This document shows, piece by piece, positions 44,125-64,000 of a stretch of 64,000 nucleotides of DNA. The stretch is from assembly GCA_043800555.1 (NCBI GenBank), contig JAZDMX010000007.1:26683-90682 (forward strand), written 5' to 3'. Position 1 is the stretch's first letter, and every line of letters begins with the position of its first letter. The notes under the pieces were generated by a model. That model saw only the letters and a program-made list of their open reading frames with translations, was not told the DNA's origin and did no database searches. The position numbers and the translations under genes were made by a program. Source of the DNA: Candidatus Omnitrophota bacterium (GTDB lineage: Bacteria; Omnitrophota; Gorgyraeia; Gygaellales; Profunditerraquicolaceae).

Positions 44125-44125
<1 letters not shown>
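43874..44125 (-). CDS. atpC: F1 ATP synthase epsilon subunit, truncated form (beta-sandwich only, 83 aa)
   Basis: ...TIFTGEVCSLVVPAALGYLGVLADHAPLIASL...GKGFIEV is the epsilon N-terminal domain. No C-terminal helical hairpin. Overlaps the atpD stop. Confidence 0.75.
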
Positions 44126-45540
<1,415 letters not shown>

Positions 45541-45572
45541 TTAACTTAAGGGTGGCGCCATGGCTATTCCAA

Positions 45573-47953: not shown

Positions 47954-47954
47954 A

Positions 47955-48497: not shown

Positions 48498-48508
48498 TTT
48501 GCTTAAAA

Positions 48509-49003: not shown

Positions 49004-49015
49004 CTTACCCCCCAG

Positions 49016-49071
49016 ATTCCAATGCGGGTTTGGAACAAGCAATAAAACCAGTTCCAAACCCGCATTGGAAT
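49016..49071. repeat. Palindromic intergenic repeat, copy C
   Basis: ATTCCAATGCGGGTTTGGAAC-aagcaataaaacca-GTTCCAAACCCGCATTGGAAT, between atpE and atpF. Confidence 0.8.
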
Positions 49072-49088
49072 TGGTTAAGACTCACAAA

Positions 49089-49319
49089 TTATAATTTTCC
49101 TGCTAACACAAACGCAAAAACCAGCGCGTAAATAGTCAAGGCCTCAATAAAAGCGCAACCGGTTGCCATGTTAATCAATATCTTAGTTGCCGCTTCCGGT
49201 TGCCTTCCAGTTGCTTCCATAGCCGAAGCAACTGCTTTGCCTAAGCCTAATCCTGAGCCAAACGCGGCCAAACCTAAACCTAAAGGCAATGCTAAAGCTA
49301 ATGCTACCTTATAATCCAT
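49089..49319 (-). CDS. atpE: Fo ATP synthase c subunit
   Basis: 76 aa, two TM helices, GxGxGxG loop motif (LGLGLAAFGSGLGLGKA) and conserved carboxylate helix (CAFIEALTIYALVFAF). Confidence 0.85.
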   Translation of the reverse strand: MDYKVALALALPLGLGLAAFGSGLGLGKAVASAMEATGRQPEAATKILINMATGCAFIEALTIYALVFAFVLAGKL

Positions 49320-49447
49320 TTTTTCCTCCTCAATTTTCCTGTAGTTTTCCCAAAAGATTAACCCCGGGCGCCCGATCTCCCCTGTCAGGCCCGATGAATA
49401 CTTTTCATTACCTTATCCCAAAAACTGGCCCCGAGGCCCCAGCTAAT

Positions 49448-50233
49448 TTAATGCCGGATAAGGGATTTCTCTTCTTTATCTTCGCCTTCGTGAGTTAAAA
49501 CGAGGGCAAAATATATGGTTGTTAAAAGGCTAAAAACTACTGCCTGGATTACTCCGGCTAATATCGCTAATAAAGCGCTAAACACTAATAACGGCACGCC
49601 TGCCAAGCCAAATCCGGCCAAGACGGATAAAAGCATATCGTCGCCCCAGATATTGCTGCGCAAACGTAAAGACAGGCTTATGGGCCTGACTAATTCCGAA
49701 ACAATGTGCAAAAAGAACATCATAGCCGGGACAAAAACCGAAAAAGCCAATATCCCCCGGGGCCTGCCCATCATATGGTCCAGGTAACCTAAAAACCCAA
49801 GTTCCTTAAAAGCGGTGTATTGCACGTAAATAAAAACGCAAATGGCCAAGGCCAAAGTAGTCGACCAGCTGGCGGTAGGAGACTTCATGAAAGGAATTAT
49901 TCCGAAAAGATTCATAAATATTATGTATATAAAAAGCGTGCCGATAAAAGGGGTATACCTTCTTGCCTTTGGCCCCAGTATCCCGCAAACAAAATCATCC
50001 AGGCCTCCGACAACTACCTCTACTGCGCTCTGAAGCCTTCCCGGAACCATTTTCTGTTTTCGCGATGCCAGGTATACGATCAAAGTAATAATAAAAACGG
50101 CAATAAGAGAGAATAAAACATTCTCCCAGAGATAAATTTGCTCCCCTAAATGGGTTTTTTTGCCGATTAATCCGGCTAATAATGAAACTAGATTCGGCAG
50201 TTCATGTTGGGCTTGTGCTGCTTCGACGGCCAT
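49448..50233 (-). CDS. atpB: Fo ATP synthase a subunit
   Basis: Polytopic; conserved Arg-containing helix LSLSLRLRSNIWGDDML. Position between atpI and atpE. Confidence 0.8.
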   Translation of the reverse strand: MAVEAAQAQHELPNLVSLLAGLIGKKTHLGEQIYLWENVLFSLIAVFIITLIVYLASRKQKMVPGRLQSAVEVVVGGLDDFVCGILGPKARRYTPFIGTLFIYIIFMNLFGIIPFMKSPTASWSTTLALAICVFIYVQYTAFKELGFLGYLDHMMGRPRGILAFSVFVPAMMFFLHIVSELVRPISLSLRLRSNIWGDDMLLSVLAGFGLAGVPLLVFSALLAILAGVIQAVVFSLLTTIYFALVLTHEGEDKEEKSLIRH

Positions 50234-50568
50234 ATTCCGGATACCCCCAAGACCAATATCACCAGAGACATTCCTGTTAATAAGCTCGCAACAGGAAGAA
50301 TATTCCAGGTGATGACCAAAAAACCCAATAAATATAATACCGGGAATTTGATCAAAAGCAATAATAAAAGCTTGTTCTTCGCCCGTTTGAGCACGGCTAT
50401 TTCCAATAAATTTATAGTGAGCAGGAAATTTGCCATTAACCAGCTGGCCCCAACGAGAATCCCGGCGCTAAAGGCAAAATTATGCCTAACCCCGAAAATT
50501 AAAGCAAGGCTAAATACCGCGATAACGCTTATATTTATAGGCCTATCCAGCCTCTGGCGCATCAGCAT
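50188..50568 (-). CDS. atpI: ATP synthase protein I (AtpI)-like small membrane protein
   Basis: 126 aa, four predicted TM helices, immediately upstream of and overlapping atpB. Confidence 0.5.
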   Translation of the reverse strand: MLMRQRLDRPINISVIAVFSLALIFGVRHNFAFSAGILVGASWLMANFLLTINLLEIAVLKRAKNKLLLLLLIKFPVLYLLGFLVITWNILPVASLLTGMSLVILVLGVSGIWPSKQHKPNMNCRI

Positions 50569-50804
50569 TCTTTTTTATCTATCCGGCTAACCAGCCTGAT
50601 TATCCTTATCGACTCCCTTATTCCTACCACGATGCCTATTGCGATACAGATAACGAGAGCATAAAAAGGCAGGTTGAATTTCTTTTGCAGATAATCGCCT
50701 AAGAAAAAACCGGACAAAGGAGAAACTGCCAGTATTATGGGAATGTACGAAATCATCCCCGCGATCTTAATCCTTTTATATAGATCCTGCCGGCTAGTTG
50801 CCAT
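50562..50804 (-). CDS. atpZ: AtpZ-like small membrane protein (putative Fo-associated subunit)
   Basis: 80 aa, two TM helices, first gene of the atp operon. Confidence 0.45.
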   Translation of the reverse strand: MATSRQDLYKRIKIAGMISYIPIILAVSPLSGFFLGDYLQKKFNLPFYALVICIAIGIVVGIRESIRIIRLVSRIDKKEC

Positions 50805-50871
50805 AAACTTAAAAATGGCGCCTGCACCCTTTTAAAAAGAGCCGAGGACGCCACTGTCCGATACTGGTAAT

Positions 50872-50899
50872 ATTCTATCTCCTATTTACCGCTTGTCAA
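50872..50899 (-). promoter_or_regulatory. Sigma70-like promoter candidate for the atp operon (TTGACA-16 bp-TAGAAT on the minus strand)
   Basis: Minus-strand reading CTTGACAAGCGGTAAATAGGAGATAGAATATT lies about 70 nt upstream of the atpZ ATG. Confidence 0.35.
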
Positions 50900-50901
50900 G
50901 G

Positions 50902-52881
50902 CTAAACTCTTATCGGCAATACGACAAAAGGTATTCCCTCCCTGTATAATTTTTTCTGCATGGCAAAAACCGTATAATTATGCAGGAACCGGATAGCAAA
51001 CGAATCCTGGGGGAAAATAAGCTGGCCGCCGAAAAATACCGAGTTTGGAAAACGCTCCAGGATTCGGGGCGCGATATTGCCTACCTCCTCTACCACGTCC
51101 GTCCCTACCTCAAATACTCCTTCGGCGTAAAATCCCTGCTTATTCATGAACTTGACGTAACGGATAATATCCGATTTGGCTTCTGTCTTCAACCTGCCGA
51201 CTTCGCTTGTGCCTTTAAAGTTCCCGGCATCAACTATACCTATCTGGACAAAAACAAAGTTTTTGAAGACGCCTCCGAATAATCTTATGATGCCAAACAA
51301 GGTATGCAAGCCTATGCCGTTAAAACCGCTTACCAGTAATACCGCGGTCTTGGACTTAGGATCAGGCTTTATCTCTTTGGCTAAATTAACAGCAGGATTC
51401 AATAGGGCCTCTTCGGCTGATTCTGCCACGGTAACCAGATTATTCAATCTATGCAGGAGCTTTGCGGTTTGATAATAATGCCGCTTTACAAGAATCGCCA
51501 CCACAATCAATGACCCGGTAAAAAACAGAGTGATCCACCCTCCTTCGCCAAACTTAACTATTATCATGGACACAAGTATAAAAGCGCACAAGATAAAGCC
51601 GGTGCCGTTAATAAAAAACTTTTTTATCCAGCCTTTAACCTGGGAACGCACCTGCCACCAATGCCGCACCATACCTGCTTGAGAAAAACAAAAAGTAATA
51701 AATACATTAATGCTATATAAAACTACCAAAAGCTTTACTGAACCGCCGGTTACAACCATAATCAGTAAAGCTAAACCGCCCATAATTAATATGCCATTCT
51801 GGGTTACTAATCTATCGCTTAAAGCTGAAAACCGGTTAGGAAACCAACGGTCGTTAGCCATGTTTGCCAGGACTGCGGGACCCCCAAGGAACCCTGTCTG
51901 GGCGGCTACAAAAAGCAGGGTAGCTTCTGAGAATAAAGCGACTAAGACAAATACGTAGCCCGATTTTCCCCATCCTGCGGTAACCTGTTCAAAAAGAGTG
52001 GCGTTCAATGTCTTACCAGGTTCCAGGGTGACCTGATAAAGTAAATAAGCGATCATCAAACCCAACACTACAAAAGACAGCGATATAGCCATATAACGCA
52101 TGGTTTTTTTGGCGGTTTTTACTTTTGGTTCCCGCAAAACGCTTGTACTGTTGCTAACCGCTTCAATACCGGTAAATGTTCCCGCGCCCATACTGTATGC
52201 CTTAAGAATCAGGAAAATAGTGCCCCACAAGCCTAAACTTGAAACGGTATTATGCACTTCGCCTGCCGTAGAAGCTATCAACGCGCTTGAACCCGATGAG
52301 TGCTTAAACAAACTATAAAAAATAATAAAAACGTGGGTAACTATAAAGGTAAGGAAAATCGGGGTTAATACCAATACTGATTCTTTTATCCCGCGCATAT
52401 TCAAGACCATAAGCGCAAAGACTGCTATAACCGCGAAAAACAGCCTATACGCGTGTAGGCCCATAGGCATAAGGCTAAACAACGCGTCCGCTCCGCTGGC
52501 AACAGAAATAGCGATAGTCAAGACATAATCGATAAGCAAGGCGCATCCGGAAACCATCCCCAGCGTAGGCGATAACAGTTTACTCCCCACTAAATATCCG
52601 CCTCCGCCTCCGGGAAATAACTCAATTATCTGCGAATAACTGGTGCTAATGACAAAAATAGTGAGCACTGTGCCTAAGGCGACAAAAATGCTTAAGTAGG
52701 TATGCGTTCCTAAAGCAAGAAAGGCTTCCTGAGGCCCGTAGCAAGATGAGGATAAGCCATCCGCGCCTAAACCTATCCAGGCAAAGAAAGCTATCAGCGA
52801 TATTTTATGAAAAATCGTGGAATCCTGAGGATCCCGCGACTTTCCTATTACCAGATTCTTTATCCGTTGAATCAGAGACAT
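50902..52881 (-). CDS. APC-superfamily transporter with C-terminal cytoplasmic domain, KimA-like (putative K+/H+ symporter)
   Basis: N-terminus IQRIKNLVIGKSRDP...ISLIAFFAWIGLGADGLSSSCYGPQEAF resembles the KimA/YdaO family signature LLIGKPLK...LAMLSSDALSSVAYGTEQ. Twelve TM helices plus an about 200-aa soluble tail. Confidence 0.55.
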   Translation of the reverse strand: MSLIQRIKNLVIGKSRDPQDSTIFHKISLIAFFAWIGLGADGLSSSCYGPQEAFLALGTHTYLSIFVALGTVLTIFVISTSYSQIIELFPGGGGGYLVGSKLLSPTLGMVSGCALLIDYVLTIAISVASGADALFSLMPMGLHAYRLFFAVIAVFALMVLNMRGIKESVLVLTPIFLTFIVTHVFIIFYSLFKHSSGSSALIASTAGEVHNTVSSLGLWGTIFLILKAYSMGAGTFTGIEAVSNSTSVLREPKVKTAKKTMRYMAISLSFVVLGLMIAYLLYQVTLEPGKTLNATLFEQVTAGWGKSGYVFVLVALFSEATLLFVAAQTGFLGGPAVLANMANDRWFPNRFSALSDRLVTQNGILIMGGLALLIMVVTGGSVKLLVVLYSINVFITFCFSQAGMVRHWWQVRSQVKGWIKKFFINGTGFILCAFILVSMIIVKFGEGGWITLFFTGSLIVVAILVKRHYYQTAKLLHRLNNLVTVAESAEEALLNPAVNLAKEIKPDPKSKTAVLLVSGFNGIGLHTLFGIIRLFGGVFKNFVFVQIGIVDAGNFKGTSEVGRLKTEAKSDIIRYVKFMNKQGFYAEGVFEVGTDVVEEVGNIAPRILERFPNSVFFGGQLIFPQDSFAIRFLHNYTVFAMQKKLYREGIPFVVLPIRV

Positions 52882-52897
52882 TTGCCAAAAACCCAGC

Positions 52898-52955
52898 TAA
52901 TTCCAATGCGGGTATGGAACCGGTTTAACCGGTTCCATACCCGCATTGGAATTAG
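52898..52955. repeat. Palindromic intergenic repeat, copy D (perfect 27-bp arms)
   Basis: CTAATTCCAATGCGGGTATGGAACCGG-TTTAA-CCGGTTCCATACCCGCATTGGAATTAG. Abuts the hppA stop codon; lies upstream of the KimA-like start. Confidence 0.85.
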
Positions 52956-55238
52956 CTAGAAACCAGTTTCTCCTCTTTTCTTAAAACTCAAGGCGCCATG
53001 CTTTGAATACAGTATGGCCCCGAATATCAAGACAACGCAAAGCACGATACTAATTATAACACCCGAGTTAGTTATGCGGTAATGAATAATTATGGGGGCG
53101 GCTAAAAGCGAAACCATATTGATTACCTTAATCATCGGGTTTAGCGCCGGGCCGGCAGTATCCTTTAAGGGATCTCCGACAGTGTCTCCGACAACAGAGG
53201 CCTTATGGCTCTCAGAGCCTTTTCCTCCGTATAAACCGTCTTCAATGGTCTTCTTGGCATTATCCCAGGCGCCGCCAGCGGTGGACATAAAAACCGCCAG
53301 GAGTTGGCCGGAAACAATTACGCCTGCGAGGAACCCGCCTAAAGCCTCAACCCTTAAAACCATCCCGATTAAAAGCGGGCTTAACACTGCGATTAAAGCC
53401 AACCCAATAAGTTCTTTTTGCGCGGATATCGTACAGATATCCACCGCCTTCTTGTAATCCGGCTTAACCTTACCTTCCATTAACCCCGGAGTATGGAACT
53501 GCTTACGCACTTCTTCAACAATCAAAGCCGCTGCTCGGGCAACGGAATTAATCATCAGGCTGGAGAATAAACAGGGGATCGCAGCGCCTATCAAAACGCC
53601 GACAAAGACAATCGGCTCAGATACCCTGATACCGGTTGTTAAGAGCCGCAAAGAATCAACTATTCCCATCTGCGCCTGGACCTTGGTAACATCGGTCAGA
53701 AAGGCGCCGAACAAAGAAACCGCGGCAATTACTGCCGAGCCTATGGCCACACCCTTAGTGATCGCCTTAGTAGTATTTCCTACGGCATCAAGGTCCGCCA
53801 TAATCTGGCGCGCCTGTGGCTCTAAATGCGCCATTTCACCAATGCCGTTAGCGTTATCCGCAATAGGCCCGAATGAATCCATAGCCACGTTATTGCCGGT
53901 TAAAGTAAGCATGCCGATACCGGTCATAGCTACCCCGTAAAGGATAAACACAACGGGTTGGCCCCAATAAATCAGGACGGCAGCCATAATGGTAAGGGCG
54001 ATAACTATAAACTGCCAGGCGCTGGATTCAAGGCCGATTGATATGCCGCGTAAAATCAGGGTGGCCGAACCTGTCCTGCTGGAAGAAGCGATTTCTTTTA
54101 CCGGCGCATGATGCGTATGGGTAAAATACTTGGTTACTTCGTCGATAACAATGGCCAAAACAATACCTATGGCCACAGAAAAGAAGGCCCTCCATTCATG
54201 CATATAATAGTGGGCTAAAATCAAGAACGCAGCTATTGAAATCGCGGCAGACGAATAAAACCCGCGATTAATGCTCTTAAACGCATCCTCTCCTTTACCC
54301 GCCTTTTTGCTCCCTTTAACCAGGTACGTCCCGATAATCGAAGAAAGGACTCCGATACCACGCACTAAAAGCGGAAAAACTATCCACTTCAATTCCCCGG
54401 TAATCGAAACTAACGCCAAGCCTAAGATTAATCCGGACACAATCGTTACTTCATATGACTCGAATATATCCGCGGCCATTCCCGCGCAATCGCCGACATT
54501 ATCCCCTACCAGGTCAGCGATAACCGCGGCATTCCTGGGATCGTCTTCAGGGATATTCTTTTCGACTTTCCCTACAAGATCGGCCCCTACATCGGCGGCC
54601 TTAGTATAAATACCTCCGCCGACGCGCATAAAGAGCGCAAGGAGCGTGCCGCCAAAACCAAAACCCAACAAAACATCGGGAGAAGCAATCCCGAAAATAA
54701 TGAATATGGCCGTGCCGCCTAAAAGGCCAAGGCCATCGGTAAGCATGCCGGTAATGGTCCCTGTGCGGTAAGCAATCTTTAGCGCCTCGGCAAAACTCCG
54801 GCGTGAAGCAGAAGCTACCCGGACATTGCCTTCAACTGCCATACGCATCCCGAATTGGCCTACGGTAAGTGAAAAAAATGCGCCCATAACGAATGCCACA
54901 GCCCTGCCAAAACCAACTATAAGTCGCACCAAGTCCGGAGTAAAATTACTAAAACGCTTTAATGCCTCTTCGCTCGGCGGAATGACATATACCGAAAAAA
55001 ACAAAACAGCGGTGAGGGCTAAAATTAAAGGAAGTATGCTTTTTAACTGGCGGCTTAGATAGGCGTCGGCGCCTGTGCGTATCGCATTCCAGACATCCTG
55101 CATGCCTTGAGTCCCCTTATCCTGGCTTAAAACCTGTTTGCGCAAGAAAAGCGCATAACCTAATCCCAAAAAAGCAATTAAAAGCACGCCCCAAATCGCA
55201 ACCATTTCAAAAGCACTCGCATTCATCAAACCTAGCAT
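52956..55238 (-). CDS. hppA: Membrane-bound proton-translocating pyrophosphatase, K+-independent type
   Basis: 760 aa. GGGIYTKAADVGADLVGKVE and DNVGDCAG motifs. GNTTKA (Lys instead of Ala) marks the K+-insensitive H+-PPase clade. Confidence 0.9.
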   Translation of the reverse strand: MLGLMNASAFEMVAIWGVLLIAFLGLGYALFLRKQVLSQDKGTQGMQDVWNAIRTGADAYLSRQLKSILPLILALTAVLFFSVYVIPPSEEALKRFSNFTPDLVRLIVGFGRAVAFVMGAFFSLTVGQFGMRMAVEGNVRVASASRRSFAEALKIAYRTGTITGMLTDGLGLLGGTAIFIIFGIASPDVLLGFGFGGTLLALFMRVGGGIYTKAADVGADLVGKVEKNIPEDDPRNAAVIADLVGDNVGDCAGMAADIFESYEVTIVSGLILGLALVSITGELKWIVFPLLVRGIGVLSSIIGTYLVKGSKKAGKGEDAFKSINRGFYSSAAISIAAFLILAHYYMHEWRAFFSVAIGIVLAIVIDEVTKYFTHTHHAPVKEIASSSRTGSATLILRGISIGLESSAWQFIVIALTIMAAVLIYWGQPVVFILYGVAMTGIGMLTLTGNNVAMDSFGPIADNANGIGEMAHLEPQARQIMADLDAVGNTTKAITKGVAIGSAVIAAVSLFGAFLTDVTKVQAQMGIVDSLRLLTTGIRVSEPIVFVGVLIGAAIPCLFSSLMINSVARAAALIVEEVRKQFHTPGLMEGKVKPDYKKAVDICTISAQKELIGLALIAVLSPLLIGMVLRVEALGGFLAGVIVSGQLLAVFMSTAGGAWDNAKKTIEDGLYGGKGSESHKASVVGDTVGDPLKDTAGPALNPMIKVINMVSLLAAPIIIHYRITNSGVIISIVLCVVLIFGAILYSKHGALSFKKRGETGF

Positions 55239-55297
55239 TTTGCTACTTCTCCTTTCCCGTTTCTATACCTACGCTCCTAGCCTTACTTTCTATAGAT

Positions 55298-55705
55298 TTA
55301 TTGAGCCGTCGTTGCCGCAATATTCAAATTCCTGACGCCCGCTGCATTTAAAATATCCAACACGCCTACTATGTCTTTAAAACGCACAAGCCTATCCGAA
55401 CTTACGATTACCCCGAGAGAAGGATTATTCTTGCGCCTTAAACCAATCTTTTCCTTTAACTCCTTGCGAGTCACCACAGTTGCGTCCAGATATACCACGC
55501 CTTCATCAGTTATGGCTATATTAACCGGGCTCATATCATTTACCGGGGCCGCGCTGGAAGCCTGCGGTAAGTTTACTTTAAGGCTCGATTGAAGTATTAA
55601 CGGCGTTGTTATCATGAATATTATCAAAAGAACTAAAATAACGTCGGTAAAAGGAGTTATGTTTATCTCGGCGATTAATCTTTGTTTGGGCTTGCGTAAG
55701 TTCAT
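55298..55705 (-). CDS. exbD: ExbD/TolR family biopolymer transport protein
   Basis: INITPFTDVILVLLIIFMITTP is the signature N-terminal TM helix. 135 aa. Confidence 0.8.
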   Translation of the reverse strand: MNLRKPKQRLIAEINITPFTDVILVLLIIFMITTPLILQSSLKVNLPQASSAAPVNDMSPVNIAITDEGVVYLDATVVTRKELKEKIGLRRKNNPSLGVIVSSDRLVRFKDIVGVLDILNAAGVRNLNIAATTAQ

Positions 55706-56367
55706 TTCCGCTTAATGGCCGGGCCTTCGGCCCCGCCAGATGTTGATGGCGAGCGTAACCGGACCATCAATAAATCCATTGTTTCAGAAGCGCACAATTC
55801 CATATCGGTAATAAAATTATCTATCGACTTACTGAAATAATTATACGCGATAACCGCGGGTACCGCAACACAAAGGCCCATAGCCGTGCAAGCCAAAGAT
55901 TCGGATATACCGCTGATAACTACGCTTATACCTCCGGAGCCAGCCATCGATATATCGTGAAAAGCCCGGATAATTCCCAGAACCGTGCCAAAAAGACCGA
56001 TATAAACAGCCGTGCTTCCGATTGTCCCTACTACGCTTGTATATCTCTCAAGTTTAACCGTTTCAATCGCTATCTCTCTTTCCATGGTGTTGGATATGAG
56101 CATTTCGCTATGGCCGGCTAAATTCAGCCCCGCATACACGACGCTTGAAAAAGGGGTGTCCGTATTCTTGCAGGTATCCAGGGCCCTGGTTGTATTCCCT
56201 TTTTCCAGTTCTCCCGATACCTCCGACATAAAATCCGTTCTTTTTATCCTGGATCTCTTACGGTAATAAAAATACCTCTCCATGATAATAGCTAACGATA
56301 AAATCGAGCAAGCTAAAAGTATATATATCGTTAAACCGCCGCTTCGAAGCATCTGCCATATGGTCAT
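55702..56367 (-). CDS. exbB: MotA/TolQ/ExbB proton-channel family protein
   Basis: Three TM helices with conserved ...GLFGTVLGIIRAF... region; translationally coupled to exbD. Confidence 0.8.
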   Translation of the reverse strand: MTIWQMLRSGGLTIYILLACSILSLAIIMERYFYYRKRSRIKRTDFMSEVSGELEKGNTTRALDTCKNTDTPFSSVVYAGLNLAGHSEMLISNTMEREIAIETVKLERYTSVVGTIGSTAVYIGLFGTVLGIIRAFHDISMAGSGGISVVISGISESLACTAMGLCVAVPAVIAYNYFSKSIDNFITDMELCASETMDLLMVRLRSPSTSGGAEGPAIKRK

Positions 56368-56428
56368 TTATTGCCTCCCTATCAAAATAAAATAGCGCAT
56401 TATAGATCGCGGGCAAATCCGCCATCCC

Positions 56429-57031
56429 TTATCTACCATGCATCACTCTCTTTCTCTTCTTGGCGTAAACTAAATTCAGTATCTTGTATGCCAAAAATAT
56501 CAATATTGCAAAAATAACGAGAATTAAAACCACCTTTGTATATTTCACGATTGCCGCCCCGAAAAGGGCCAAAAGCAATATCCTGGGAATTACTCCGATT
56601 AATGTGCAAAATACGAATGGCACAAACGGTATGCAGGTAATGCCCGCGGCAATTGAAAAAACCTTAAACGGGACTATCGGAATCACCCTGCCGATAAGAA
56701 CGCTCATTACTCCGTATTTTTTGGCAAACTCCTCTGCCTTATAAATATGCTGGGGCTTAATAAGTATGAACCTGCCAAACTTCAATAATACCGGCATAGC
56801 AGCATACCTGCCGAGGCAATACCCTACCATGGCCCCCAAGGTCGAACCTAGCGAACCGAAGATAAGGACTGAGCCTAAAGGGATTCCGATTGCGCCGGCG
56901 CTCACGATGATCACTTCAGACGGTATCGGCACTATGCATGATTCAAAGAACATGGCCAGAAAAACGCCTAAATCCCCGAATTTAGGGATTAGGCCGGTTA
57001 AATCATGCTGCAGCAAACTGGATAAATGCAC
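56429..57031 (-). CDS. DedA/TVP38 family membrane protein
   Basis: FLAMFFESCIVPIPSEVIIVSAGA matches the DedA re-entrant motif region. 200 aa. Confidence 0.75.
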   Translation of the reverse strand: MHLSSLLQHDLTGLIPKFGDLGVFLAMFFESCIVPIPSEVIIVSAGAIGIPLGSVLIFGSLGSTLGAMVGYCLGRYAAMPVLLKFGRFILIKPQHIYKAEEFAKKYGVMSVLIGRVIPIVPFKVFSIAAGITCIPFVPFVFCTLIGVIPRILLLALFGAAIVKYTKVVLILVIFAILIFLAYKILNLVYAKKRKRVMHGR

Positions 57032-57040
57032 AATCCCCTT

Positions 57041-57397
57041 CTATTGCTTATAATGAAAAACTACTCTCAGTTTATTTTTATCCAATTGCGCCAACTCTAC
57101 CTCTTTAGTCGCCTCCAGCGCCTTTTTCGGGCAGGAATCTACGCACTGCGCGCAATAAATGCAACGGCTCAGATCAAACACAGCTTCAAATTTATTCTCG
57201 CCGGTTTTATTAATGGTAATGGCATTGGTCGGGCAATCCCGCATGCACATTTTGCAGCCAATGCATTTTTCGGGATCAAATTTAATTTTCCCCCGGAACC
57301 TATCCGGCATCTCCAACTTTTGCGCCGGATATAAATTCGTAGCCGGTTTCTTAAAGATAGAACCCAAGACCTCCCTCAACATCTTTGCCGGTCTCAT
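57041..57397 (-). CDS. 2x[4Fe-4S] ferredoxin-like subunit (NuoI/MbhN-like) of the membrane-bound hydrogenase
   Basis: Two CxxCxxCxxxCP motifs: CIGCKMCMRDCP and CIYCAQCVDSCP. Confidence 0.75.
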   Translation of the reverse strand: MRPAKMLREVLGSIFKKPATNLYPAQKLEMPDRFRGKIKFDPEKCIGCKMCMRDCPTNAITINKTGENKFEAVFDLSRCIYCAQCVDSCPKKALEATKEVELAQLDKNKLRVVFHYKQ

Positions 57398-58335
57398 TTT
57401 AAAAAGGCTCCTTTCAAGATAAGGTTAAGCAAAAGTTGCAATAGCGCTAAGGGAACCAGGAATTTCCAACAAAAACTAATCATCTGGTCTATGCGCAGGC
57501 GCGCCACAACTGTGCGTAATAACGCGATCAAACTTACGATACATAAGACCTTGATAACAAAAATCATAAACCCTAACACGGGATTTACGTTTAAGCCAAA
57601 AGGAAAAAATACCAACGCCAACAAAGCGCTTCCGGCAATCATTTCTACGTCCAGGGTCATTCTTAAAAAAGCAAGCATCCTCCCGCTATATTCGGTAAAA
57701 CCTCCGGCGACTACTTCTGTTTCGGCTTCCGGGATATCAAAAGGCACCTTTTCAAGCTTGCCCAGCAAACTAACTAAAGATACGCCAAAACCTAACAAGT
57801 TAAACGCCCAAAACCACGGATGCGCCATATAAAAATCCGCTAATTTCTTTAACGACCAGGTATCTGCCAGGAGCGCCGAAGAAAGAATGCCCATAAACAG
57901 CGGGACCTCATAGGCAAATAACTGGGTAAGCGAGCGCACTGAACCGATCCTGGAATATAACGAAGTTGAATACCAGCCGCCGATAAAAAATGCCAAAGTT
58001 GGCAGCGTCAACAAATAAAGCACAACTATGATATCGCCGTTAAAAGAAAAAAGCGCGCCTGTTTTCCAAAGAGGAATGTAGAGAAACGCGGTTACTGCCG
58101 AAGCCAAAGCAAATATCGGGGCAATTTTAAACATCTTAGGGTTGGACTCAGCCGGGATAATATCTTCTTTAGCCAAAAGCTTGATAAAATCCGCGAAAGG
58201 CTGAAACCACGGCGGCCCGACCCTGTTTTGCAACCGGGCATAAATCTTCCGATCGATGAATTCCGCGATTAAGGCGAAAATGACCAAGAAAATCAACCCC
58301 GGGAACACAATGATATAAAATAATGATCCTGCCAT
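57394..58335 (-). CDS. NuoH/MbhM-like integral membrane subunit of the membrane-bound hydrogenase
   Basis: MAGSLFYIIVFPGLIFLVIFALIAEFIDRKIYARLQNRVGPPWFQPFADFIKLL aligns with the NuoH N-terminus. Start set to the ATG at 58335 (GAGG SD). The ORF-track GTG at 58362 runs toward repeat E. Confidence 0.8.
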   Translation of the reverse strand: MAGSLFYIIVFPGLIFLVIFALIAEFIDRKIYARLQNRVGPPWFQPFADFIKLLAKEDIIPAESNPKMFKIAPIFALASAVTAFLYIPLWKTGALFSFNGDIIVVLYLLTLPTLAFFIGGWYSTSLYSRIGSVRSLTQLFAYEVPLFMGILSSALLADTWSLKKLADFYMAHPWFWAFNLLGFGVSLVSLLGKLEKVPFDIPEAETEVVAGGFTEYSGRMLAFLRMTLDVEMIAGSALLALVFFPFGLNVNPVLGFMIFVIKVLCIVSLIALLRTVVARLRIDQMISFCWKFLVPLALLQLLLNLILKGAFLK

Positions 58336-58364
58336 AATTGCCTCAACACCCTCTCTAACCACAA

Positions 58365-58420
58365 AATTCCAATGCGGGTTTGGAACGTGCTTAAAACCTA
58401 TTCCAAACCCGCATTGGAAT
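58365..58420. repeat. Palindromic repeat, copy E, located inside the hydrogenase operon (between large subunit and NuoH-like genes)
   Basis: AATTCCAATGCGGGTTTGGAAC-gtgcttaaaaccta-TTCCAAACCCGCATTGGAAT. The loop is the reverse complement of the loop of copy F. Confidence 0.85.
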
Positions 58421-58428
58421 AGGTTTAA

Positions 58429-59664
58429 TTACTTCGATAACCTATCCTGAAGCTTTTTATTAAGCGGGGTAAAATCTATTCCCCGTTCCCTATGCCATTG
58501 TACGCTGTAAGCATGCAAAGCGGACCAGTTAACTACTTTGTCCCCGGCGCAATCCTGCTCCCTCAAACGGACCATCCGGTCAGTGCAGGAAAAACACGGG
58601 TCAATTGCCGCAATCACTATCGGCATGTCTGCCAAGAATCTATCGCGAAGCATATGCTTTACCGCCTGGACATTGGCTAAAGTAGGAGCCCTGATTTTCA
58701 CCCTATCCGGTTTTTCAGTGCCGTTAGATTTAACATAATGCACATCTTCTCCACGCGGAGCCTCATAACGGCTGATTGCCTCTCCGGCAGGGATCTTACG
58801 CGGCGCCCTTACTGCTACCGGGCCATCGGGCAAATTCTTAAGCGCCTGGCGGATAATTTTATAACTCTCCAAGAGTTCTTTCACCCGCACCACCGTCCTG
58901 CCGTAAACATCGCAATGATCATCGGTAACCACATTAAAAGAAAGCTCCCCGTAAGCGGCATAAGGATCATCGGCCCGGACATCCCGCTTAACTCCGCTTG
59001 CCCGGGCAGTCGGCCCTACTGCGTCAAGCCGCAAAACATCTTCACGCAAAAGTATTCCTACCCCGGATAATCTTTTAATTATAGTAGTTTCTTCGGTAGC
59101 AACCTCAATATAATATTTGGTCCTTTCTTCGAGAGTTTCCAGCCCTTTAAGTATCTCCTGCGCCTGTTGGGGGCTTATGTCGCGCCGGACTCCGCCAATA
59201 GTATTCATCCCGTAATTAACCCTATTGCCGCTAATAGAAGCGAGTATATCCATTACCACTTCCCTGTCCCTCCATGAATACATAAGCAAGGTATCGAAAC
59301 CGATTTCATGTCCGGCGACACCCAACCATAAAAGATGGCTATGGATTCTTTCTAATTCAGCAATGATGGTGCGGATATACAAGGCCCGAGGCGGGACAGC
59401 TAATCCGGCAATCTCTTCAACCGCTTGGATAAAACACGTAGAATGAGAATGCGAACAGATACCGCAGACGCGTTCGATAAGGTAGATATCCTGTATATAA
59501 GTCCTCTCTTCGGCTGCCTTTTCTATGCCGCGATGATTATAGCCCAAGCGGATATCCACGCCAAGGATCTTCTCGCCTTTAAGCGCGACGCTAAAACCTT
59601 CCGGTTCTTTTAAGGCCGGGTGCTGAGGGCCAATTGGAATCTTAAAATCTGGTGAATTACGCAT
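58429..59664 (-). CDS. Group 4 [NiFe]-hydrogenase large subunit (NuoD/MbhL/EchE-like) retaining both Ni-Fe ligand motifs
   Basis: L1 motif RVCGICSHSH (C-G-I-C-S-x-x-H) near the N-terminus and L2 motif DPCFSCTDR near the C-terminus. Confidence 0.8.
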   Translation of the reverse strand: MRNSPDFKIPIGPQHPALKEPEGFSVALKGEKILGVDIRLGYNHRGIEKAAEERTYIQDIYLIERVCGICSHSHSTCFIQAVEEIAGLAVPPRALYIRTIIAELERIHSHLLWLGVAGHEIGFDTLLMYSWRDREVVMDILASISGNRVNYGMNTIGGVRRDISPQQAQEILKGLETLEERTKYYIEVATEETTIIKRLSGVGILLREDVLRLDAVGPTARASGVKRDVRADDPYAAYGELSFNVVTDDHCDVYGRTVVRVKELLESYKIIRQALKNLPDGPVAVRAPRKIPAGEAISRYEAPRGEDVHYVKSNGTEKPDRVKIRAPTLANVQAVKHMLRDRFLADMPIVIAAIDPCFSCTDRMVRLREQDCAGDKVVNWSALHAYSVQWHRERGIDFTPLNKKLQDRLSK

Positions 59665-60136
59665 TTTTGCCTACCTCGCCTTCTTTAGCCGGCTTGGCTT
59701 TCCAGTCTTTCCTCAAAGGATACTCGCCGGCTGGCCAGTCATCGGTCAAGGGATACCGATTACCAGAGCCTAAACCATCAACCTCGGCTCCGAACAAATC
59801 CACTAACTCCCTCTCGTAAATCTCCGCACCGGGAAAATAAGGAATAACCGTCTTGATTACTGGAGCGTTTTTTGGGGCAGCCGTCTTTAGATTAACCAAA
59901 ATCCCTGAATCAGCTGCCAAATGGTATATAAATCCCAATGTTTCCTGCTCATCCAAGCCGGTTATCGTGCATAAATGCGAAAATCGCAGGTCCTTGGCTA
60001 AATACGCAAAAACCGGCATAAAATTATCCAAACCGACTTCAACGGATATGCGCCGGGGCCGGATTATCCTGACGGAATCGCTAAGATAATTAAACTTGTT
60101 AACTAGGCTCTCTTTAATTTCTTCTTCCTGGGACAT
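59657..60136 (-). CDS. NuoC/MbhK-like 30-kDa subunit of the hydrogenase
   Basis: 159 aa. ...LCTITGLDEQE...ERELVDLFG is the NuoC-family core (ERE-x2-D-x-FG). Confidence 0.75.
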   Translation of the reverse strand: MSQEEEIKESLVNKFNYLSDSVRIIRPRRISVEVGLDNFMPVFAYLAKDLRFSHLCTITGLDEQETLGFIYHLAADSGILVNLKTAAPKNAPVIKTVIPYFPGAEIYERELVDLFGAEVDGLGSGNRYPLTDDWPAGEYPLRKDWKAKPAKEGEVGKNA

Positions 60137-60138
60137 AA

Positions 60139-60597
60139 TTACCTCCCGCTCTTCTTAATTTCTTCTTTTTCTTCAAGGCTAGTCAAAAGTTTGACCACGC
60201 CATCAATAATTGCCTTGGGGCTGGCCGGGCAACCCGGGATATATGCTGAGACAGGAATAACTTTATCTATACCCGAAGCTACGTTATAACATTTATCAAA
60301 CACGCCGCCGGAACAAGCGCAGGTACCAACCGCCACCACGAATTTCGGCTCAGGCATCTGTTCATAAATGCGGCGCAGCCTGTCTTCTATCTGTTTGGTT
60401 ACCGGGCCTGAACAAACCAAAACATCCGCATGGCGAGGCGTTCCTTTCAAGACCACCCCAAAACGCTCCAAATCATACCTTGGGGTTAAGGCAGCAATGA
60501 TTTCAATATCGCAAGCATTGCAGGCTCCGGTATTGAAATGCAAAATCCACGGTGATTTTATCCTTGCCCAAGTAACTATTTTCTTGACTAAACCCAT
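60139..60597 (-). CDS. Hydrogenase small subunit (NuoB/MbhJ-like, proximal [4Fe-4S] cluster)
   Basis: GACNACDIE (CxxC, hydrogenase-type rather than NuoB CC) ... GTCACSGG ... IPGCPASP. Start set to the ATG at 60597 (MGLVKK...); the ORF-track 20-aa extension is a translation of repeat copy F. Confidence 0.8.
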   Translation of the reverse strand: MGLVKKIVTWARIKSPWILHFNTGACNACDIEIIAALTPRYDLERFGVVLKGTPRHADVLVCSGPVTKQIEDRLRRIYEQMPEPKFVVAVGTCACSGGVFDKCYNVASGIDKVIPVSAYIPGCPASPKAIIDGVVKLLTSLEEKEEIKKSGR

Positions 60598-60607
60598 AAT
60601 CTTAACC

Positions 60608-60664
60608 AGTTCCAATGCGGGTTTGGAATAGGTTTTGAGCACGTTCCAAACCCGCATTGGAACT
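60608..60664. repeat. Palindromic repeat, copy F, inside the hydrogenase operon (between NuoA-like and small-subunit genes)
   Basis: AGTTCCAATGCGGGTTTGGAAT-aggttttgagcac-GTTCCAAACCCGCATTGGAACT. Same unit as copy E in opposite orientation. Confidence 0.85.
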
Positions 60665-60667
60665 TAC

Positions 60668-61000
60668 CTATTTCCTTAATAATACATATAAACCAATGAT
60701 ACCGCCGATAATATAAAAAATAGCCATAATCAAAGCGCCAATATTAACAAAATGCATAGTAGCAATCATCAAAGTAGAGACATGCGCTAAAGTAAAGAAA
60801 AAAGCAAAAGGAAAAAACTGGCTGTAATCAGGCTGCGCGGAATTATCAAAATTACTCTCTCCGCAGGCATAAGATTCATAGGAGTCTGCCTTGGGTTTAT
60901 TCGAGCGATATGCCAGCCTAGAAAATAAACGGTTAAGCAGGAATAATAAAACCAGCACTATTACAAAAGCTACTGCCGGATTAGCAAGCCAGTTACCCAT
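60668..61000 (-). CDS. NuoA/ND3-like small membrane subunit (MbhI-position)
   Basis: 110 aa, three TM helices, YESYACGE loop resembling the NuoA YECG motif. Confidence 0.5.
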   Translation of the reverse strand: MGNWLANPAVAFVIVLVLLFLLNRLFSRLAYRSNKPKADSYESYACGESNFDNSAQPDYSQFFPFAFFFTLAHVSTLMIATMHFVNIGALIMAIFYIIGGIIGLYVLLRK

Positions 61001-61006
61001 TAAAAA

Positions 61007-61300
61007 TTATCCTTTCAGCTTCCTGATGTTCCTTGCGTCCAATGAATTGGTGTGGCGATGGATCCCTAAAACAACGCCAACCGCTACAGTCATGATTACG
61101 ACTTCTATTACAATAATAGTAATTACCAGCGCCTGGGCCAAAGCCAGGTTACCGCTTTTTAAGCCAGCAGATATAACTAAAAGCGTAACCGCTTTAATCA
61201 GGATTTCGATTCCGATTAAAACCCGGATTAAATTATGGGTCGCCAGGATGCAGTAAATTCCGATAACAAAAAGTAAAACTACAAAAATTCCGCTAACCAC
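61007..61300 (-). CDS. NuoK/MrpC-like small membrane subunit
   Basis: Three TM helices (FVVLLFVIGIYCILA...). Start moved to the GTG at 61300, immediately preceded by AAGGAAG and 4 nt after the upstream stop. The ORF-track start at 61378 would overlap the upstream gene by 86 nt. Confidence 0.55.
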   Translation of the reverse strand: MVSGIFVVLLFVIGIYCILATHNLIRVLIGIEILIKAVTLLVISAGLKSGNLALAQALVITIIVIEVVIMTVAVGVVLGIHRHTNSLDARNIRKLKG

Positions 61301-61784
61301 CCTTCTTCCTTTCCTTAAATAATACCACGACTCCGAAAACTCCGGTAAAGAGTATGATAATCTGCCCCAGTAAATCAAGCTGCCTTAAATGCCATAAAAC
61401 CAGGCGCGGGTCAGGCTCAACTTCGGGTAAAGGTAATTTCGCCTTAAAGCTCATGCTCGCTAAGCCAAGCGCTATCCCCAGAATTATTATTATCAAAGGC
61501 AGCCCCCGGAAACGCTCAAGCCTTGACTTCATATGCTCGATAACCTCTTTATGAGTCATAGCCTGAGTCAGGCTGATTACGCTGATAAACAAAACCGGGA
61601 TTAACCCTGCGCAAACAGACAATTCAAAGACTGCCGCCAAGGAAGCGTTCATCCTGAAAATTATCAAAGTCAAAACCGCGCTCATTAAGGCTAGGCCGAT
61701 AGCCGAACGTAAAAGGCTCCTGGTCATTACTGTCCAGAGCGCCGCGATAACCAATAACACTAAAATCAACACATCCAGGAACAA
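61293..61784 (-). CDS. MrpB/MnhB-like membrane subunit (MbhD/E-like)
   Basis: 163 aa, four TM helices, in the Mrp-module position upstream of NuoK-like. Confidence 0.5.
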   Translation of the reverse strand: MFLDVLILVLLVIAALWTVMTRSLLRSAIGLALMSAVLTLIIFRMNASLAAVFELSVCAGLIPVLFISVISLTQAMTHKEVIEHMKSRLERFRGLPLIIIILGIALGLASMSFKAKLPLPEVEPDPRLVLWHLRQLDLLGQIIILFTGVFGVVVLFKERKKGG

Positions 61785-61785
61785 A

Positions 61786-63216
61786 CTAACCTCCTACTAT
61801 GGGAAGAAACCCCAAGATAAATCCCTTAAGCAGCCAGGGTGACAACACCCCAACCGCTACAATTAAGGATGCCAGGAATATCGCCGGAAACATCAAGCTG
61901 AAACCGGCTTCTCGAACATCCTTAAATTCATCGCGAGGCTTACCAAAGAATACTTTTCTTTGCAGGGCCAGAAAATAAGCCAGGGTCAAAAGGCTTCCTA
62001 ATACGGCAATAACCGCGTAAGTCTTGCAACCAGCCAACCACAAAGCAATGATTATAACCAATTTGCTCCAGAACCCGGCTAAAGGAGGAATTCCTGCGCA
62101 GGATAAACTTCCTATTACCGAAGTTAAGCTGGTTAAAGGCATCTGCTTGGCTAAGCCACCCATCTTCTCTATATCCCTTGAGCCCAGCCTATCTTCTACT
62201 GCAGCGGAATTAATGAAAAGAAGCGATTTAAAAGCAGCGTGATTAAAAATATGCAGGGCTGCTCCGGCAACCCCTAAAACTGTCCCGCTTCCGACTCCTA
62301 AGATAATATAACCGACCTGGCTAATACTCGAATAGCTAAGCATCCTTTTAAAATCGCTCTGGGTAAGAGCAGCCAGGGCCCCAAGGACAATCGAGAAGGC
62401 CCCGATAAATAGAAGAATAGGCTGTATTGAAACGCTAAACCCGAGCATCGATACGATGATCCTGATCAAAGAATAAACTCCGGCAACTTTAGTAATTATC
62501 CCCGCCAATAATATCGAGGCCGGGGCCGGGGCCGAAGTATAAACATCCGGCAACCAGCCATGAAAAGGCATCAGCCCGGATTTAATAAACAGGGCCACGA
62601 TAAATAACCCTATAGCTAAGCTGGCTATGAGGCTTTTACCCTGGTCGATAAGCATATAATGGACCAGCGAAAAATTTGTGCTTCCGGCAATAAGGATTAA
62701 CAAGGCTATGCCCGCAATCATCAAAACAGTGGCCACTCCGGATAGAACAATGTATTTGAACGCGCCTTCTAAGCCGGGCATATCCCGGTTAAACGCTATC
62801 AATATAAATGAAGAAACCGCTGTAACCTCTAAGAATACATAGAGTGAAAACACGTCTTTAGCCATAGTCACGGCATTCATTCCGGCGACAGCAATTAAAA
62901 GTATATTTATGAAATTGAACTTCTCGGCGTTATTCTTTATAAACGTAAGGGCGCTGAATAAAGTTACGAAAGAAACCATGGCAATGCAAAACAAAGCCAC
63001 TTTGCTTAAAATATCTACCCCGAGTTCAAAATTAAAAATGCTGGCGCAAAACGCATGATTCGCCTTCCAGAAAACAGGATCCGGAAGCAAAACCACCGCC
63101 ATCTGGAGCAAGGATAAAATGGCGGCCAGGCCAAAAGCCATTCTCCTAATCCCTTTAAGCGGAAGATTCAGGATTAATACGCTAAGAAATGGAATTAATA
63201 TTAATGCCGCGCACAC
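61786..63216 (-). CDS. MrpD/NuoN/NuoM-like antiporter-type membrane subunit
   Basis: 476 aa, about 14 TM helices. Conserved antiporter-module motifs (...WLPDVYTSAPAPASILLAGI..., ...GIPPLAGFWSK...). Confidence 0.75.
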   Translation of the reverse strand: MCAALILIPFLSVLILNLPLKGIRRMAFGLAAILSLLQMAVVLLPDPVFWKANHAFCASIFNFELGVDILSKVALFCIAMVSFVTLFSALTFIKNNAEKFNFINILLIAVAGMNAVTMAKDVFSLYVFLEVTAVSSFILIAFNRDMPGLEGAFKYIVLSGVATVLMIAGIALLILIAGSTNFSLVHYMLIDQGKSLIASLAIGLFIVALFIKSGLMPFHGWLPDVYTSAPAPASILLAGIITKVAGVYSLIRIIVSMLGFSVSIQPILLFIGAFSIVLGALAALTQSDFKRMLSYSSISQVGYIILGVGSGTVLGVAGAALHIFNHAAFKSLLFINSAAVEDRLGSRDIEKMGGLAKQMPLTSLTSVIGSLSCAGIPPLAGFWSKLVIIIALWLAGCKTYAVIAVLGSLLTLAYFLALQRKVFFGKPRDEFKDVREAGFSLMFPAIFLASLIVAVGVLSPWLLKGFILGFLPIVGG

Positions 63217-63282
63217 TTGAATACTCTCTTTTCTGTTAGGGCCAGCCCTACTCTTACAGCATCCGGCATAGAGCCTCTATTG

Positions 63283-64000
63283 CTACCGAAGAATAAGTAA
63301 CCCAAAAATAATGAGCATACCCGAAATTGCCCATGCCAGATAAACCGCATAATTACCCGTATGCAGTTTTCTTATGCCGGAGGAAAAACCATAAGCCAAC
63401 CGCACGCTTAAACTATCATAAACCCAGTTTATCCCCCTGTCCAAACCTAAGCTAATTTTAGAAATAATATTTATTAAACCCATGCCCCAATTATACGGGT
63501 CAAAAAACCTTTTTTCGGCCAAATCATAAATATTGGAGATAACAGGGAAATAGCGGATATGGTCCAAAGCGTGTAAGCCGCTTCCCCCCTTTTTTAAACC
63601 GAATAAATGATTAACTACGGCTAAAATTAACACTACAAAAGTAATTGCCACAAGCGCAGGATTCGCCGGAAAACCGCTAAAATGATGCCCCCCTAACCTT
63701 TCAGCCCCTAAGATGGGCTCAATGAGGTAATTTAAAGGCAACCAATTGAATAAACCGAAAATTGTGCAGATAAGGGCAATAACAACCATGGGTATAAGCA
63801 TGGCAAAATGCGCTTCTTTTACCTTTTCATTTCCCGGGTTGGCTTTACCCATAAAAGCAGAATGCCCGAGCTTTAAAAAAGAGGCGGCAGTAAGGAAAGA
63901 ACCTGCTACTGCCATAAAATAAAATATCCAACCTCGTTCCAGGGCTCCGTCATACACAAGCTCCTTGGAGAAAAATCCGTTAAAAGGCCAAACGCCTGAG
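63283..64000 (-). CDS. Second antiporter-like (NuoL/MrpA-type) membrane subunit, 5'-truncated by the window edge
   Basis: The frame is open from 64000 with no stop (…SGVWPFNGFFSKELVYDGALERGW…). The ORF-track M at 63957 is a GTG. Contains the …FLKLGHSAFMG… C-terminal antiporter motif. Confidence 0.5.
   Translation of the reverse strand, partial: SGVWPFNGFFSKELVYDGALERGWIFYFMAVAGSFLTAASFLKLGHSAFMGKANPGNEKVKEAHFAMLIPMVVIALICTIFGLFNWLPLNYLIEPILGAERLGGHHFSGFPANPALVAITFVVLILAVVNHLFGLKKGGSGLHALDHIRYFPVISNIYDLAEKRFFDPYNWGMGLINIISKISLGLDRGINWVYDSLSVRLAYGFSSGIRKLHTGNYAVYLAWAISGMLIIFGLLILR

Follow-up and report, generated by a model that had tools for sequence, protein, structure and literature searches.

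A predicted membrane-bound [NiFe]-hydrogenase with a complex I-like membrane arm in a Candidatus Omnitrophota genome

When a bacterium encodes homologues of the NuoB, NuoC and NuoD subunits of complex I side by side, do these belong to an NADH-quinone oxidoreductase or to a hydrogenase? The question is raised by a locus of Candidatus Omnitrophota bacterium (assembly GCA_043800555.1, contig JAZDMX010000007.1, positions 26,683 to 90,682 of the forward strand), which we analysed as a single stretch of 64,000 nucleotides, hereafter the window. An earlier note on positions 58429-60597, an interval that equals the genes for the B, C and D homologues and whose coordinates and sequences the note gave exactly, had proposed a bona fide hydrogenase rather than complex I, on the grounds that the NuoD-like subunit retains both pairs of Ni-Fe-binding cysteines and the NuoB-like subunit a hydrogenase-type CxxC. 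The mapping of the ligands, the CxxC of the small subunit and the best matches to the membrane-bound hydrogenase (MBH) of Pyrococcus furiosus all favor this proposal. Judged from sequence comparison and structure prediction, these genes very probably specify the catalytic core of a [NiFe]-hydrogenase that is membrane-bound and pumps ions, and not that of complex I. The catalytic genes, and the parts of their products on which the argument turns, are the following (coordinates refer to the window):

60139-60597, minus strand: predicted [NiFe]-hydrogenase small subunit (MbhJ/NuoB-like), 152 aa; Pfam Oxidored_q6, 112 bits
59657-60136, minus strand: NuoC/MbhK-like subunit, 159 aa; Pfam Complex1_30kDa, 77.9 bits; 8-nt overlap with the start of the large-subunit gene
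58429-59664, minus strand: predicted [NiFe]-hydrogenase large subunit precursor, 411 aa; Pfam Complex1_49kDa and NiFeSe_Hases
59443-59466, minus strand: L1 motif CGICSHSH of the large subunit, residues 67-74; by alignment to MbhL and HycE
58576-58602, minus strand: L2 motif DPCFSCTDR of the large subunit, residues 355-363; by alignment to MbhL and HycE
58429-58575, minus strand: 48-aa C-terminal extension of the large subunit, a presumed pro-peptide; by alignment to HycE

Among the sequences of solved structures in the PDB, the large subunit is closest to MbhL of P. furiosus MBH (6CFW_L; 334 bits, about 49% identity over 356 aligned residues), followed by Escherichia coli HycE (283 bits), Thermus thermophilus Nqo4 (228 bits) and MbsL (186 bits). 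Its residues C67, C70, C357 and C360 align on C68, C71, C374 and C377 of MbhL (6CFW), which are the Ni-Fe ligands of that enzyme (PMC11228991, PMC8165549); in HycE (7Z0S) their counterparts are the cysteines of CGIC and DPCYSC. In contrast, the complex I subunit Nqo4 holds D, H, V and D in the four ligand columns. Exact translation and the alignment to MbhL and HycE therefore agree with the earlier placement of both motifs in the group 4 consensus context, and the Nqo4 columns, like published work (PMC8165549), agree with the claim that true NuoD has lost all four cysteines.

The similarity extends to the surroundings of the metal site. In MbhL the first and second spheres comprise Glu21, His75, Ser110, Ala-Pro-Arg320, His325, Pro344-Thr345 and Asp372, together with Asn36 of MbhJ (PMC11228991). 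E20, H74, S109, R304, H309, P327-T328 and D355 of the large subunit correspond to E21, H75, Ser110, R320, H325, Pro344-Thr345 and D372 of MbhL. Three MbhL positions are changed, Lys24 to G23, Leu323 to D307 and Glu343 to A326, and HycE likewise has Ala at the last of these. The quinone ligands of complex I are replaced, with K19 in the column of Nqo4 H38 and G68 in that of Y87. The large subunit is thus predicted to carry a complete Ni-Fe(CO)(CN)2 site, made up of four cysteines, the proton relay at Glu20, His74, Arg304 and Asp355.

We assembled an orthologue set of 80 loci, one per species-level genome, and two metagenome loci. None of the four ligand cysteines varies across 83 orthologous large subunits, and E20, the CGIC motif, H74, A302-P-R304, H309, P327-T328, D355, D362 and R363 are likewise invariant; S109 is kept in 82 of the 83, with Asn in one sequence, and C77, C251 and C372 vary. 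In the subclade to which the window belongs, synonymous change has reached saturation (dS, the synonymous divergence, is about 1-1.5), and the ratio of non-synonymous to synonymous change (dN/dS) over the core of the protein is 0.04-0.07. This conservation is not a matter of chance, and the strong constraint on the ligands and on the C-terminal extension argues against decay.

The small subunit gives a matching picture. Its residues are numbered here on a 172-aa open reading frame (subtract 20 for the 152-aa protein) whose spurious start at 60657 was created by the insertion of a 60-nt hairpin; position 60597 is the ATG of a 152-aa protein (MGLVKK...) of the same length as its relatives. The motifs C46-N-A-C49 (60511-60522), G-T-C113-A-C-S and G-C143-P place C46, C49, C113 and C143 on the cysteines of MbhJ, the best PDB match (166 bits), whereas mitochondrial and cyanobacterial NuoB homologues align at the first site as a gapped 'C--C', that is, as adjacent cysteines, and Nqo6 of complex I has consecutive Cys45 and Cys46 (PMC8165549). 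The CxxC in place of the NuoB CC, and the two further cysteines that the earlier note had listed, are accordingly as described there. In 77 orthologues these four cysteines are invariant, one ambiguous residue excepted, and so is N47, the equivalent of MbhJ Asn36. The subunit is thus predicted to hold a four-cysteine proximal [4Fe-4S] cluster. Taken together, the alignments with MbhL, HycE, MbhJ and the complex I homologues, which had been proposed as a check, put the cysteines of both subunits on Ni-Fe and proximal-cluster positions. Other cysteines of the small subunit have no ligand role in MbhJ but are conserved in the family: all orthologues keep C82, and C115, two residues past the ligand C113, and C123 are each found in 73 of the 77.

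An AlphaFold (AF2) model of the large subunit, another check proposed at the outset, is confident (pLDDT 89, pTM 0.84), with lower values only at the first 20 or so residues and in the C-terminal extension. It was built on an alignment of 59 diverse homologues, representatives with 35-59% identity; an initial model, based on a shallow set of aligned sequences with 77% identity or more, had a pLDDT of 60 (under 50 in both motif regions) and was discarded. A Foldseek search of the PDB with the model returned HycE first (template modelling (TM) score 0.84, root-mean-square deviation 2.1 Å, 40% identity) and MbhL second (TM score 0.82/0.89, 46% identity), with NuoD homologues next (TM score about 0.82, 26-34% identity). 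Hydrogenase and complex I are thus not separable by fold alone in this comparison; it is the predicted ligands that separate them.

Additional evidence comes from the C-terminus of the large subunit. The protein continues for 48 residues past ...CTDR363, and this extension aligns with the cleaved C-terminal extension of HycE, whereas the MbhL chain in 6CFW ends at ...CTDR, residue 380, as expected of a processed subunit. Both the length of the extension and a W..L..YS..W....G.DF..LNKK pattern are conserved across the family, and in the window's subclade its dN/dS of 0.1-0.4 indicates purifying selection. The large subunit is therefore predicted to be made as a precursor with a 48-aa extension, which is presumably removed after nickel insertion. 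The gene directly 3' of the NuoI-like gene is a hycI, with a product of about 165 aa, in 65 of the 82 related loci, among them those of Candidatus Velamenicoccus archaeovorus (L028) and of the nearest archaeal relative, a Methanoregula (L084). The HycI proteins of the relatives match TIGR00142 at 120.8 bits (equivalog cut-off 119.1) and Pfam PF01750. That relatives encode a dedicated hydrogenase protease in the operon strongly supports the production of a real Ni-Fe enzyme by this family.

The catalytic genes are part of a tightly packed minus-strand operon that occupies 57041-64000 of the window. Its remaining features, in the order of transcription, are the following:

63283-64000, minus strand: NuoL/MrpA-like antiporter subunit, 3' part, truncated by the window end; 611 aa in relatives
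61786-63216, minus strand: antiporter-like subunit of MbhH or NuoM/N type, 476 aa; Pfam Proton_antipo_M, 233 bits
61293-61784, minus strand: MbhD/E-like (NuoJ-like) membrane subunit, 163 aa; Pfam Oxidored_q3, weak
61007-61300, minus strand: NuoK/MbhG-like subunit, 97 aa, GTG start; Pfam Oxidored_q2; 97 aa in relatives
60668-61000, minus strand: NuoA/MbhI-like small membrane subunit, 110 aa; Pfam Oxidored_q4, 22.7 bits, just under the cut-off
60610-60662, unstranded: hairpin resembling a repetitive extragenic palindrome (REP-like), 19-nt arms, between the A-like and small-subunit genes
58367-58419, unstranded: second copy of the REP-like hairpin, 19-nt arms, between the large-subunit stop and the nuoH-like start
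57394-58335, minus strand: NuoH/MbhM-like membrane subunit, 313 aa from ATG; Pfam NADHdh, 260 bits
57041-57397, minus strand: NuoI/MbhN-like subunit, 118 aa, two [4Fe-4S] clusters; Pfam Fer4 families, two CxxCxxCxxxCP motifs

Some starts in the list of open reading frames are too long. The NuoK-like protein has 97 aa (GTG at 61300, preceded by a purine-rich leader) and not 123, since the TTG at 61378 overlaps the upstream gene, and the NuoH-like protein has 313 aa (ATG at 58335) and not 322 (listed start 58362). In relatives the full operon opens with three antiporter-like subunits (480, 611 and 476-477 aa), followed by J-K-A-B-C-D-H-I. This 11-gene order is fixed in every related locus with enough flanking sequence, the position of the NuoA-like gene being conserved in all of them, and the operon is found in Omnitrophota, Planctomycetota (Sedimentisphaerales, Phycisphaerales), Krumholzibacteria, Kiritimatiellae, Verrucomicrobiota, Spirochaetota, Elusimicrobia and Margulisbacteria.

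Where a subunit has a significant match in the PDB, the best one is an MBH subunit, with the exception of the J-like subunit, whose N-terminal half matches MbsD (27 bits, weak) and then MbhD, with NCBIfam matches of DUF4040 and MnhB type; the NuoA-like subunit had no significant match in the PDB. The NuoH-like subunit scores 147 bits against MbhM and 134 against Nqo8, and the 476-aa antiporter-like subunit 220 bits against MbhH. There are three Proton_antipo_M subunits rather than one, and they keep the motifs with the Glu of transmembrane helix 5 (TM5) and the Lys of TM7 and TM12. The NuoL-like fragment at the window end has the GFFSKE motif (TM12 Lys), three transmembrane segments, a non-hydrophobic, partly amphipathic stretch of about 78 aa and a terminal transmembrane helix, which is what the lateral helix and anchor of NuoL would look like. 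Over its whole length the 611-aa orthologue of this antiporter in L001 aligns to the NuoL models of NCBIfam, with scores under their cut-offs, and its best PDB match is MbhH. For the complex as a whole, the sequences predict an electron wire of three clusters and a complete set of modules for ion translocation.

With regard to partners, we found no genes for formate dehydrogenase, CO dehydrogenase (CooS/CooF), NuoEFG or extra ferredoxin-like proteins in or beside the operon, either in the window or in the 80 genome loci. Likewise, no sodium-module genes equivalent to MbhA/B/C/F (MrpEFG type) occur in the operon or are conserved beside it in the same set. The absence of linked genes for formate dehydrogenase, CO dehydrogenase and NuoEFG, like the analogy with MBH, points to ferredoxin as the likely partner, and since the MbhABCF module is absent the translocated cation is probably H+. 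The c subunit of the ATP synthase encoded at 49089-49319 has Leu in place of Gln, and E-A-L in place of E-S/T-T, relative to what we take to be the motif of sodium-binding c subunits (Ilyobacter tartaricus), which likewise suggests H+.

On the model of work on MBH and the E. coli formate hydrogenlyase (FHL), reduced ferredoxin would hand electrons to the NuoI-like subunit, the presumed ferredoxin-facing entry, from which they would pass via three [4Fe-4S] clusters, the last being the proximal one, to the Ni-Fe site for the reduction of 2 H+ to H2. Glu20 would pass protons to Cys357, with release of H2, and movement of the beta1-beta2 loop would be transmitted to loops of the NuoH- and A-like subunits and then to the antiporter-like subunits, resulting in cation translocation. 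The gradient so formed would feed two enzymes encoded just downstream, an F-type ATP synthase and a membrane pyrophosphatase. The enzyme may also work in the reverse mode, in which H2 and the ion gradient would reduce ferredoxin, as has been proposed for the Hfo hydrogenases of Bathyarchaeia (PMC7886697).

The region downstream of the operon (44125-57031) contains dedA, exbB-exbD, genes for a membrane pyrophosphatase (760 aa) and an APC-type permease (659 aa), and an F-type ATP synthase operon that begins with atpI-like genes; this gene order is common to close relatives.

Several observations weigh against the hydrogenase reading. A tblastn search found no hycI anywhere in the 64-kb window, nor were hyp or nickel-uptake genes found in it. 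The loss of hycI from its usual place is shared by the window and its subclade, L001-L011 (82-89% identity in the large subunit). Among the best 120 of 807 HycI homologues none was traced to the long contigs of this subclade, which is a weak negative. Secondly, that ferredoxin is the partner is inferred, and so are the coupling ion and the direction of the reaction in the cell. Thirdly, three antiporter-like modules look many for the small free energy of electron transfer from ferredoxin to H2. At high H2 the available energy would not suffice for three pumps; the enzyme therefore probably operates at a very low partial pressure of H2, at a low ratio of ions to electrons, or in reverse.

The first of these observations could mean that the operon of the window specifies a hydrogenase-derived complex that no longer matures after the loss of hycI, its large subunit being left unprocessed or metal-free and serving some other redox or ion-transport role. 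The dedA gene starts 10 nt past the stop of the last operon gene (57031-57041) with no remnant of hycI between them, whereas more distant relatives have the order I-hycI-dedA-exbB, so that the gene is missing here from a position it holds in 65 of the 82 loci. However, this very subclade shows no change in the four cysteines, in Glu20 or in the second sphere despite saturated synonymous sites, with the low core dN/dS given above, and even the extension remains under constraint. Moreover, L019, on a 1.57-Mb contig, is also without an adjacent hycI, which makes unlinked protease genes plausible. Motifs of HypA-E were sought in the window and in the flanks of the 82 loci, with no match bar one bare MHE start in L069; the Hyp genes are therefore unlinked throughout the family, and their absence from one window says little. 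We consider a failure of maturation unlikely, and the hydrogenase reading is preferred, with the qualification that the label 'bona fide' still needs maturation genes, which the window does not contain; the capacity for maturation in this genome is to that extent unproven.

If the complex is an active hydrogenase, its electrons might come from the oxidation of formate or CO, as in enzymes of the FHL, Coo or group 4b/4c type, and not from ferredoxin. HycE is indeed the second-best match among solved sequences and the best structural one, and the C-terminal extension resembles that of HycE. Yet the genes that such coupling would call for, namely those for formate dehydrogenase, CooS/CooF or extra ferredoxin-like proteins, are missing in and beside the operon throughout the window and the 80 loci, and the large subunit is not fused to NuoC as HycE is, which makes this possibility quite improbable.

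The resemblance to complex I is more extensive, and might suggest an 11-subunit oxidoreductase of complex I or Ehr type whose acceptor is quinone or some other compound and whose cysteines are evolutionary leftovers. The subunit set is that of NuoABCDHIJKLMN, the fold of the large subunit lies no further from NuoD (TM score about 0.82) than from hydrogenases, its best NCBIfam match is the NuoD model, and the Joint Genome Institute (JGI) names many orthologues NADH-quinone oxidoreductase subunit D. However, the NuoD score of 345 bits is under the curated cut-off of 360, the four Ni-Fe ligands and the contexts of both motifs are intact and do not vary, the equivalents of H38 and Y87 are Lys and Gly, the small subunit has CxxC, and relatives couple the cleavable extension with a HycI encoded in the same operon. 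Published Ehr complexes are without Ni-Fe ligands (PMC6349859), which agrees with the earlier note's remark that at least one motif is altered in Mbx/MBS and Ehr. Such an enzyme is accordingly very improbable here. A sulfane-sulfur or other non-hydrogen reductase of MBS/Mbx type, for which one could cite the several antiporter-like subunits and the weak MbsD match (27 bits) of the J-like subunit, is scarcely credible, since MBS keeps only two of the four large-subunit cysteines and has a three-cysteine proximal cluster (PMC8165549), whereas all eight cysteines are present here and MbsL scores 186 bits against 334 for MbhL. The formate- or CO-coupled, MBS and complex I readings were thus rejected on gene content and ligand patterns.

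The identification of a hydrogenase is in itself ordinary: an NCBI protein 100% identical to the large subunit is already named nickel-dependent hydrogenase large subunit, and the type of enzyme has been described. The risk of mislabelling is nevertheless real, given the JGI names and the 242 bits that the large subunit scores on Pfam PF00346 (Complex1_49kDa). One survey of Omnitrophota used PF00346 as a marker of complex I (PMC10066038), and some of its 'complex I' calls may be this hydrogenase. The correct label changes the metabolic reading, from a quinone-respiring bacterium to a ferredoxin-dependent producer of H2, or a user of H2, that conserves energy at the membrane. There is evolutionary interest in a bacterial [NiFe]-hydrogenase that has complex I subunit families in its membrane arm and is widespread in uncultured anaerobes, and the enrichment culture of Ca. 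V. archaeovorus is a possible source for structural work on the origin of complex I. Neither point is new in principle. A modest interest remains in the complex I-like membrane arm of a widespread bacterial clade and in the loss of the operon-linked protease in the window's lineage.

Apart from the genes, the operon is marked by the REP-like palindrome noted above, in which two perfect 19-nt arms, TTCCAATGCGGGTTTGGAA and its complement, enclose a loop of about 15 nt. Sites lie at 60610-60662, 58367-58419, 52901-52951, 49017-49070, 11775-11823 and 33803-33821, and the arm has 11 matches in the window, against 0 expected, all of them intergenic. Two copies stand within the hydrogenase operon, in the A-B and D-H gaps, where the gaps of relatives measure 2-10 nt (2-3 nt for D-H). 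The A-B hairpin has a fold energy of -37.5 kcal/mol (z = -6.1); it is absent from the relatives L001 and L003, and no exact copy occurs in the 84 related loci. Elsewhere in the window, positions 40466-43716 hold two adjacent large genes (446 and 637 aa), the first with an HD-domain-like HDIGK motif.

How, then, does the predicted enzyme relate to known systems? The description that best fits its sequence features is that of an 11-subunit bacterial hydrogenase, related to Mbh and similar to Hfo, whose gene order resembles that of Mbh and not that of Nuo. In common with MBH of P. furiosus (group 4d, 6CFW) it has the Ni-Fe and proximal ligands, the equivalents of Glu21 and His75 and an extension of about 47-48 aa. 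In contrast, MBH has MbhABCF and a single antiporter-like subunit (MbhH) among its 14 subunits, while the operon of the window encodes 11 subunits, three of them antiporter-like; MbhD and MbhE are fused here into one protein of 163 aa, one antiporter has a NuoL-type tail, and the host is bacterial and mesophilic.

A search of 1.84 billion cluster representatives gave nearest relatives in Methanoregula, Anaerolineales, Bathyarchaeota and Asgard archaea; hydrogenase motifs are present in these, and all four are closer to the large subunit than MbhL is. The Methanoregula protein is 58% identical and is encoded in an operon of the order J-K-antiporters-A-B-C-D-H-I-HycI; the Bathyarchaeota large subunit (P0244) is 56% identical. 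The Methanoregula locus (L084) also has, at 1-2301, a second hydrogenase-like B-C-D-I set upstream of the Mbh-like operon. In the Phycisphaerales locus L078 and the Kiritimatiellae locus L071 a divergent nuoB/I/D/antiporter-like set (28-40% identity) adjoins the operon downstream on the opposite strand.

The Bathyarchaeia Hfo (Fpo-like, 11 subunits, HydDB group 4g; PMC7886697) shares with the window operon all eleven NuoABCDHIJKLMN homologues, with the limit that the A-like and J-like family matches lie below curated cut-offs, and the intact L1 and L2 motifs, and is likewise without a sodium module, NuoEFG or FpoFO. It differs in gene order, which is A-B-CD-H-I-J-K-L-M-N (L083) as against antiporters-J-K-A-B-C-D-H-I, and in being archaeal with C and D fused, whereas the window operon is bacterial with separate C and D genes. 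In L083 an FrhB/FdhB-like gene (17370-18896) directly follows the Bathyarchaeota-type 11-subunit operon.

Closer still in sequence are the group 4g membrane-bound [NiFe]-hydrogenases reported in Omnitrophota metagenome-assembled genomes (PMC8542988) and in Ca. V. archaeovorus (PMC10066038). The large subunit of Ca. V. archaeovorus LiM (L028) is 78% identical to that of the window and is encoded in the same 11-gene order, with a hycI in the operon that the window operon does not have. The two papers speak of 'Mrp-linked' enzymes without subunit analysis. The 4g label would follow from the literature on this orthologue, and we also infer that the published call corresponds to L028; group 4g is itself polyphyletic (PMC13582414, PMC7886697), and none of its enzymes had been characterized at the time of PMC7886697. 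As a tentative reading, and a rather doubtful one, the operon may represent a distinct bacterial subtype, a counterpart of Hfo intermediate between Mbh and complex I with a complex I-style arm of NuoA/J/K homologues and three antiporter-like pumps held together by a lateral helix of NuoL type, in which the deletion of hycI in the window's lineage could mean protease-independent or trans-acting maturation.

Hydrogenase-3 of the E. coli FHL (group 4a, 7Z0S) is the second sequence match and the best structural match, and has a homologous extension and a protease of the HycI type found in relatives of the window operon; the latter differs in having no formate dehydrogenase or HycB/F, a large subunit unfused to NuoC and a larger membrane arm. 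Finally, complex I shares the fold (TM score about 0.82), the 11 core subunit families and the NuoL-like tail with the predicted hydrogenase, but has lost its own Ni-Fe cysteines, has the CC of NuoB and holds the quinone ligands His38 and Tyr87, none of which applies to the proteins of the window.

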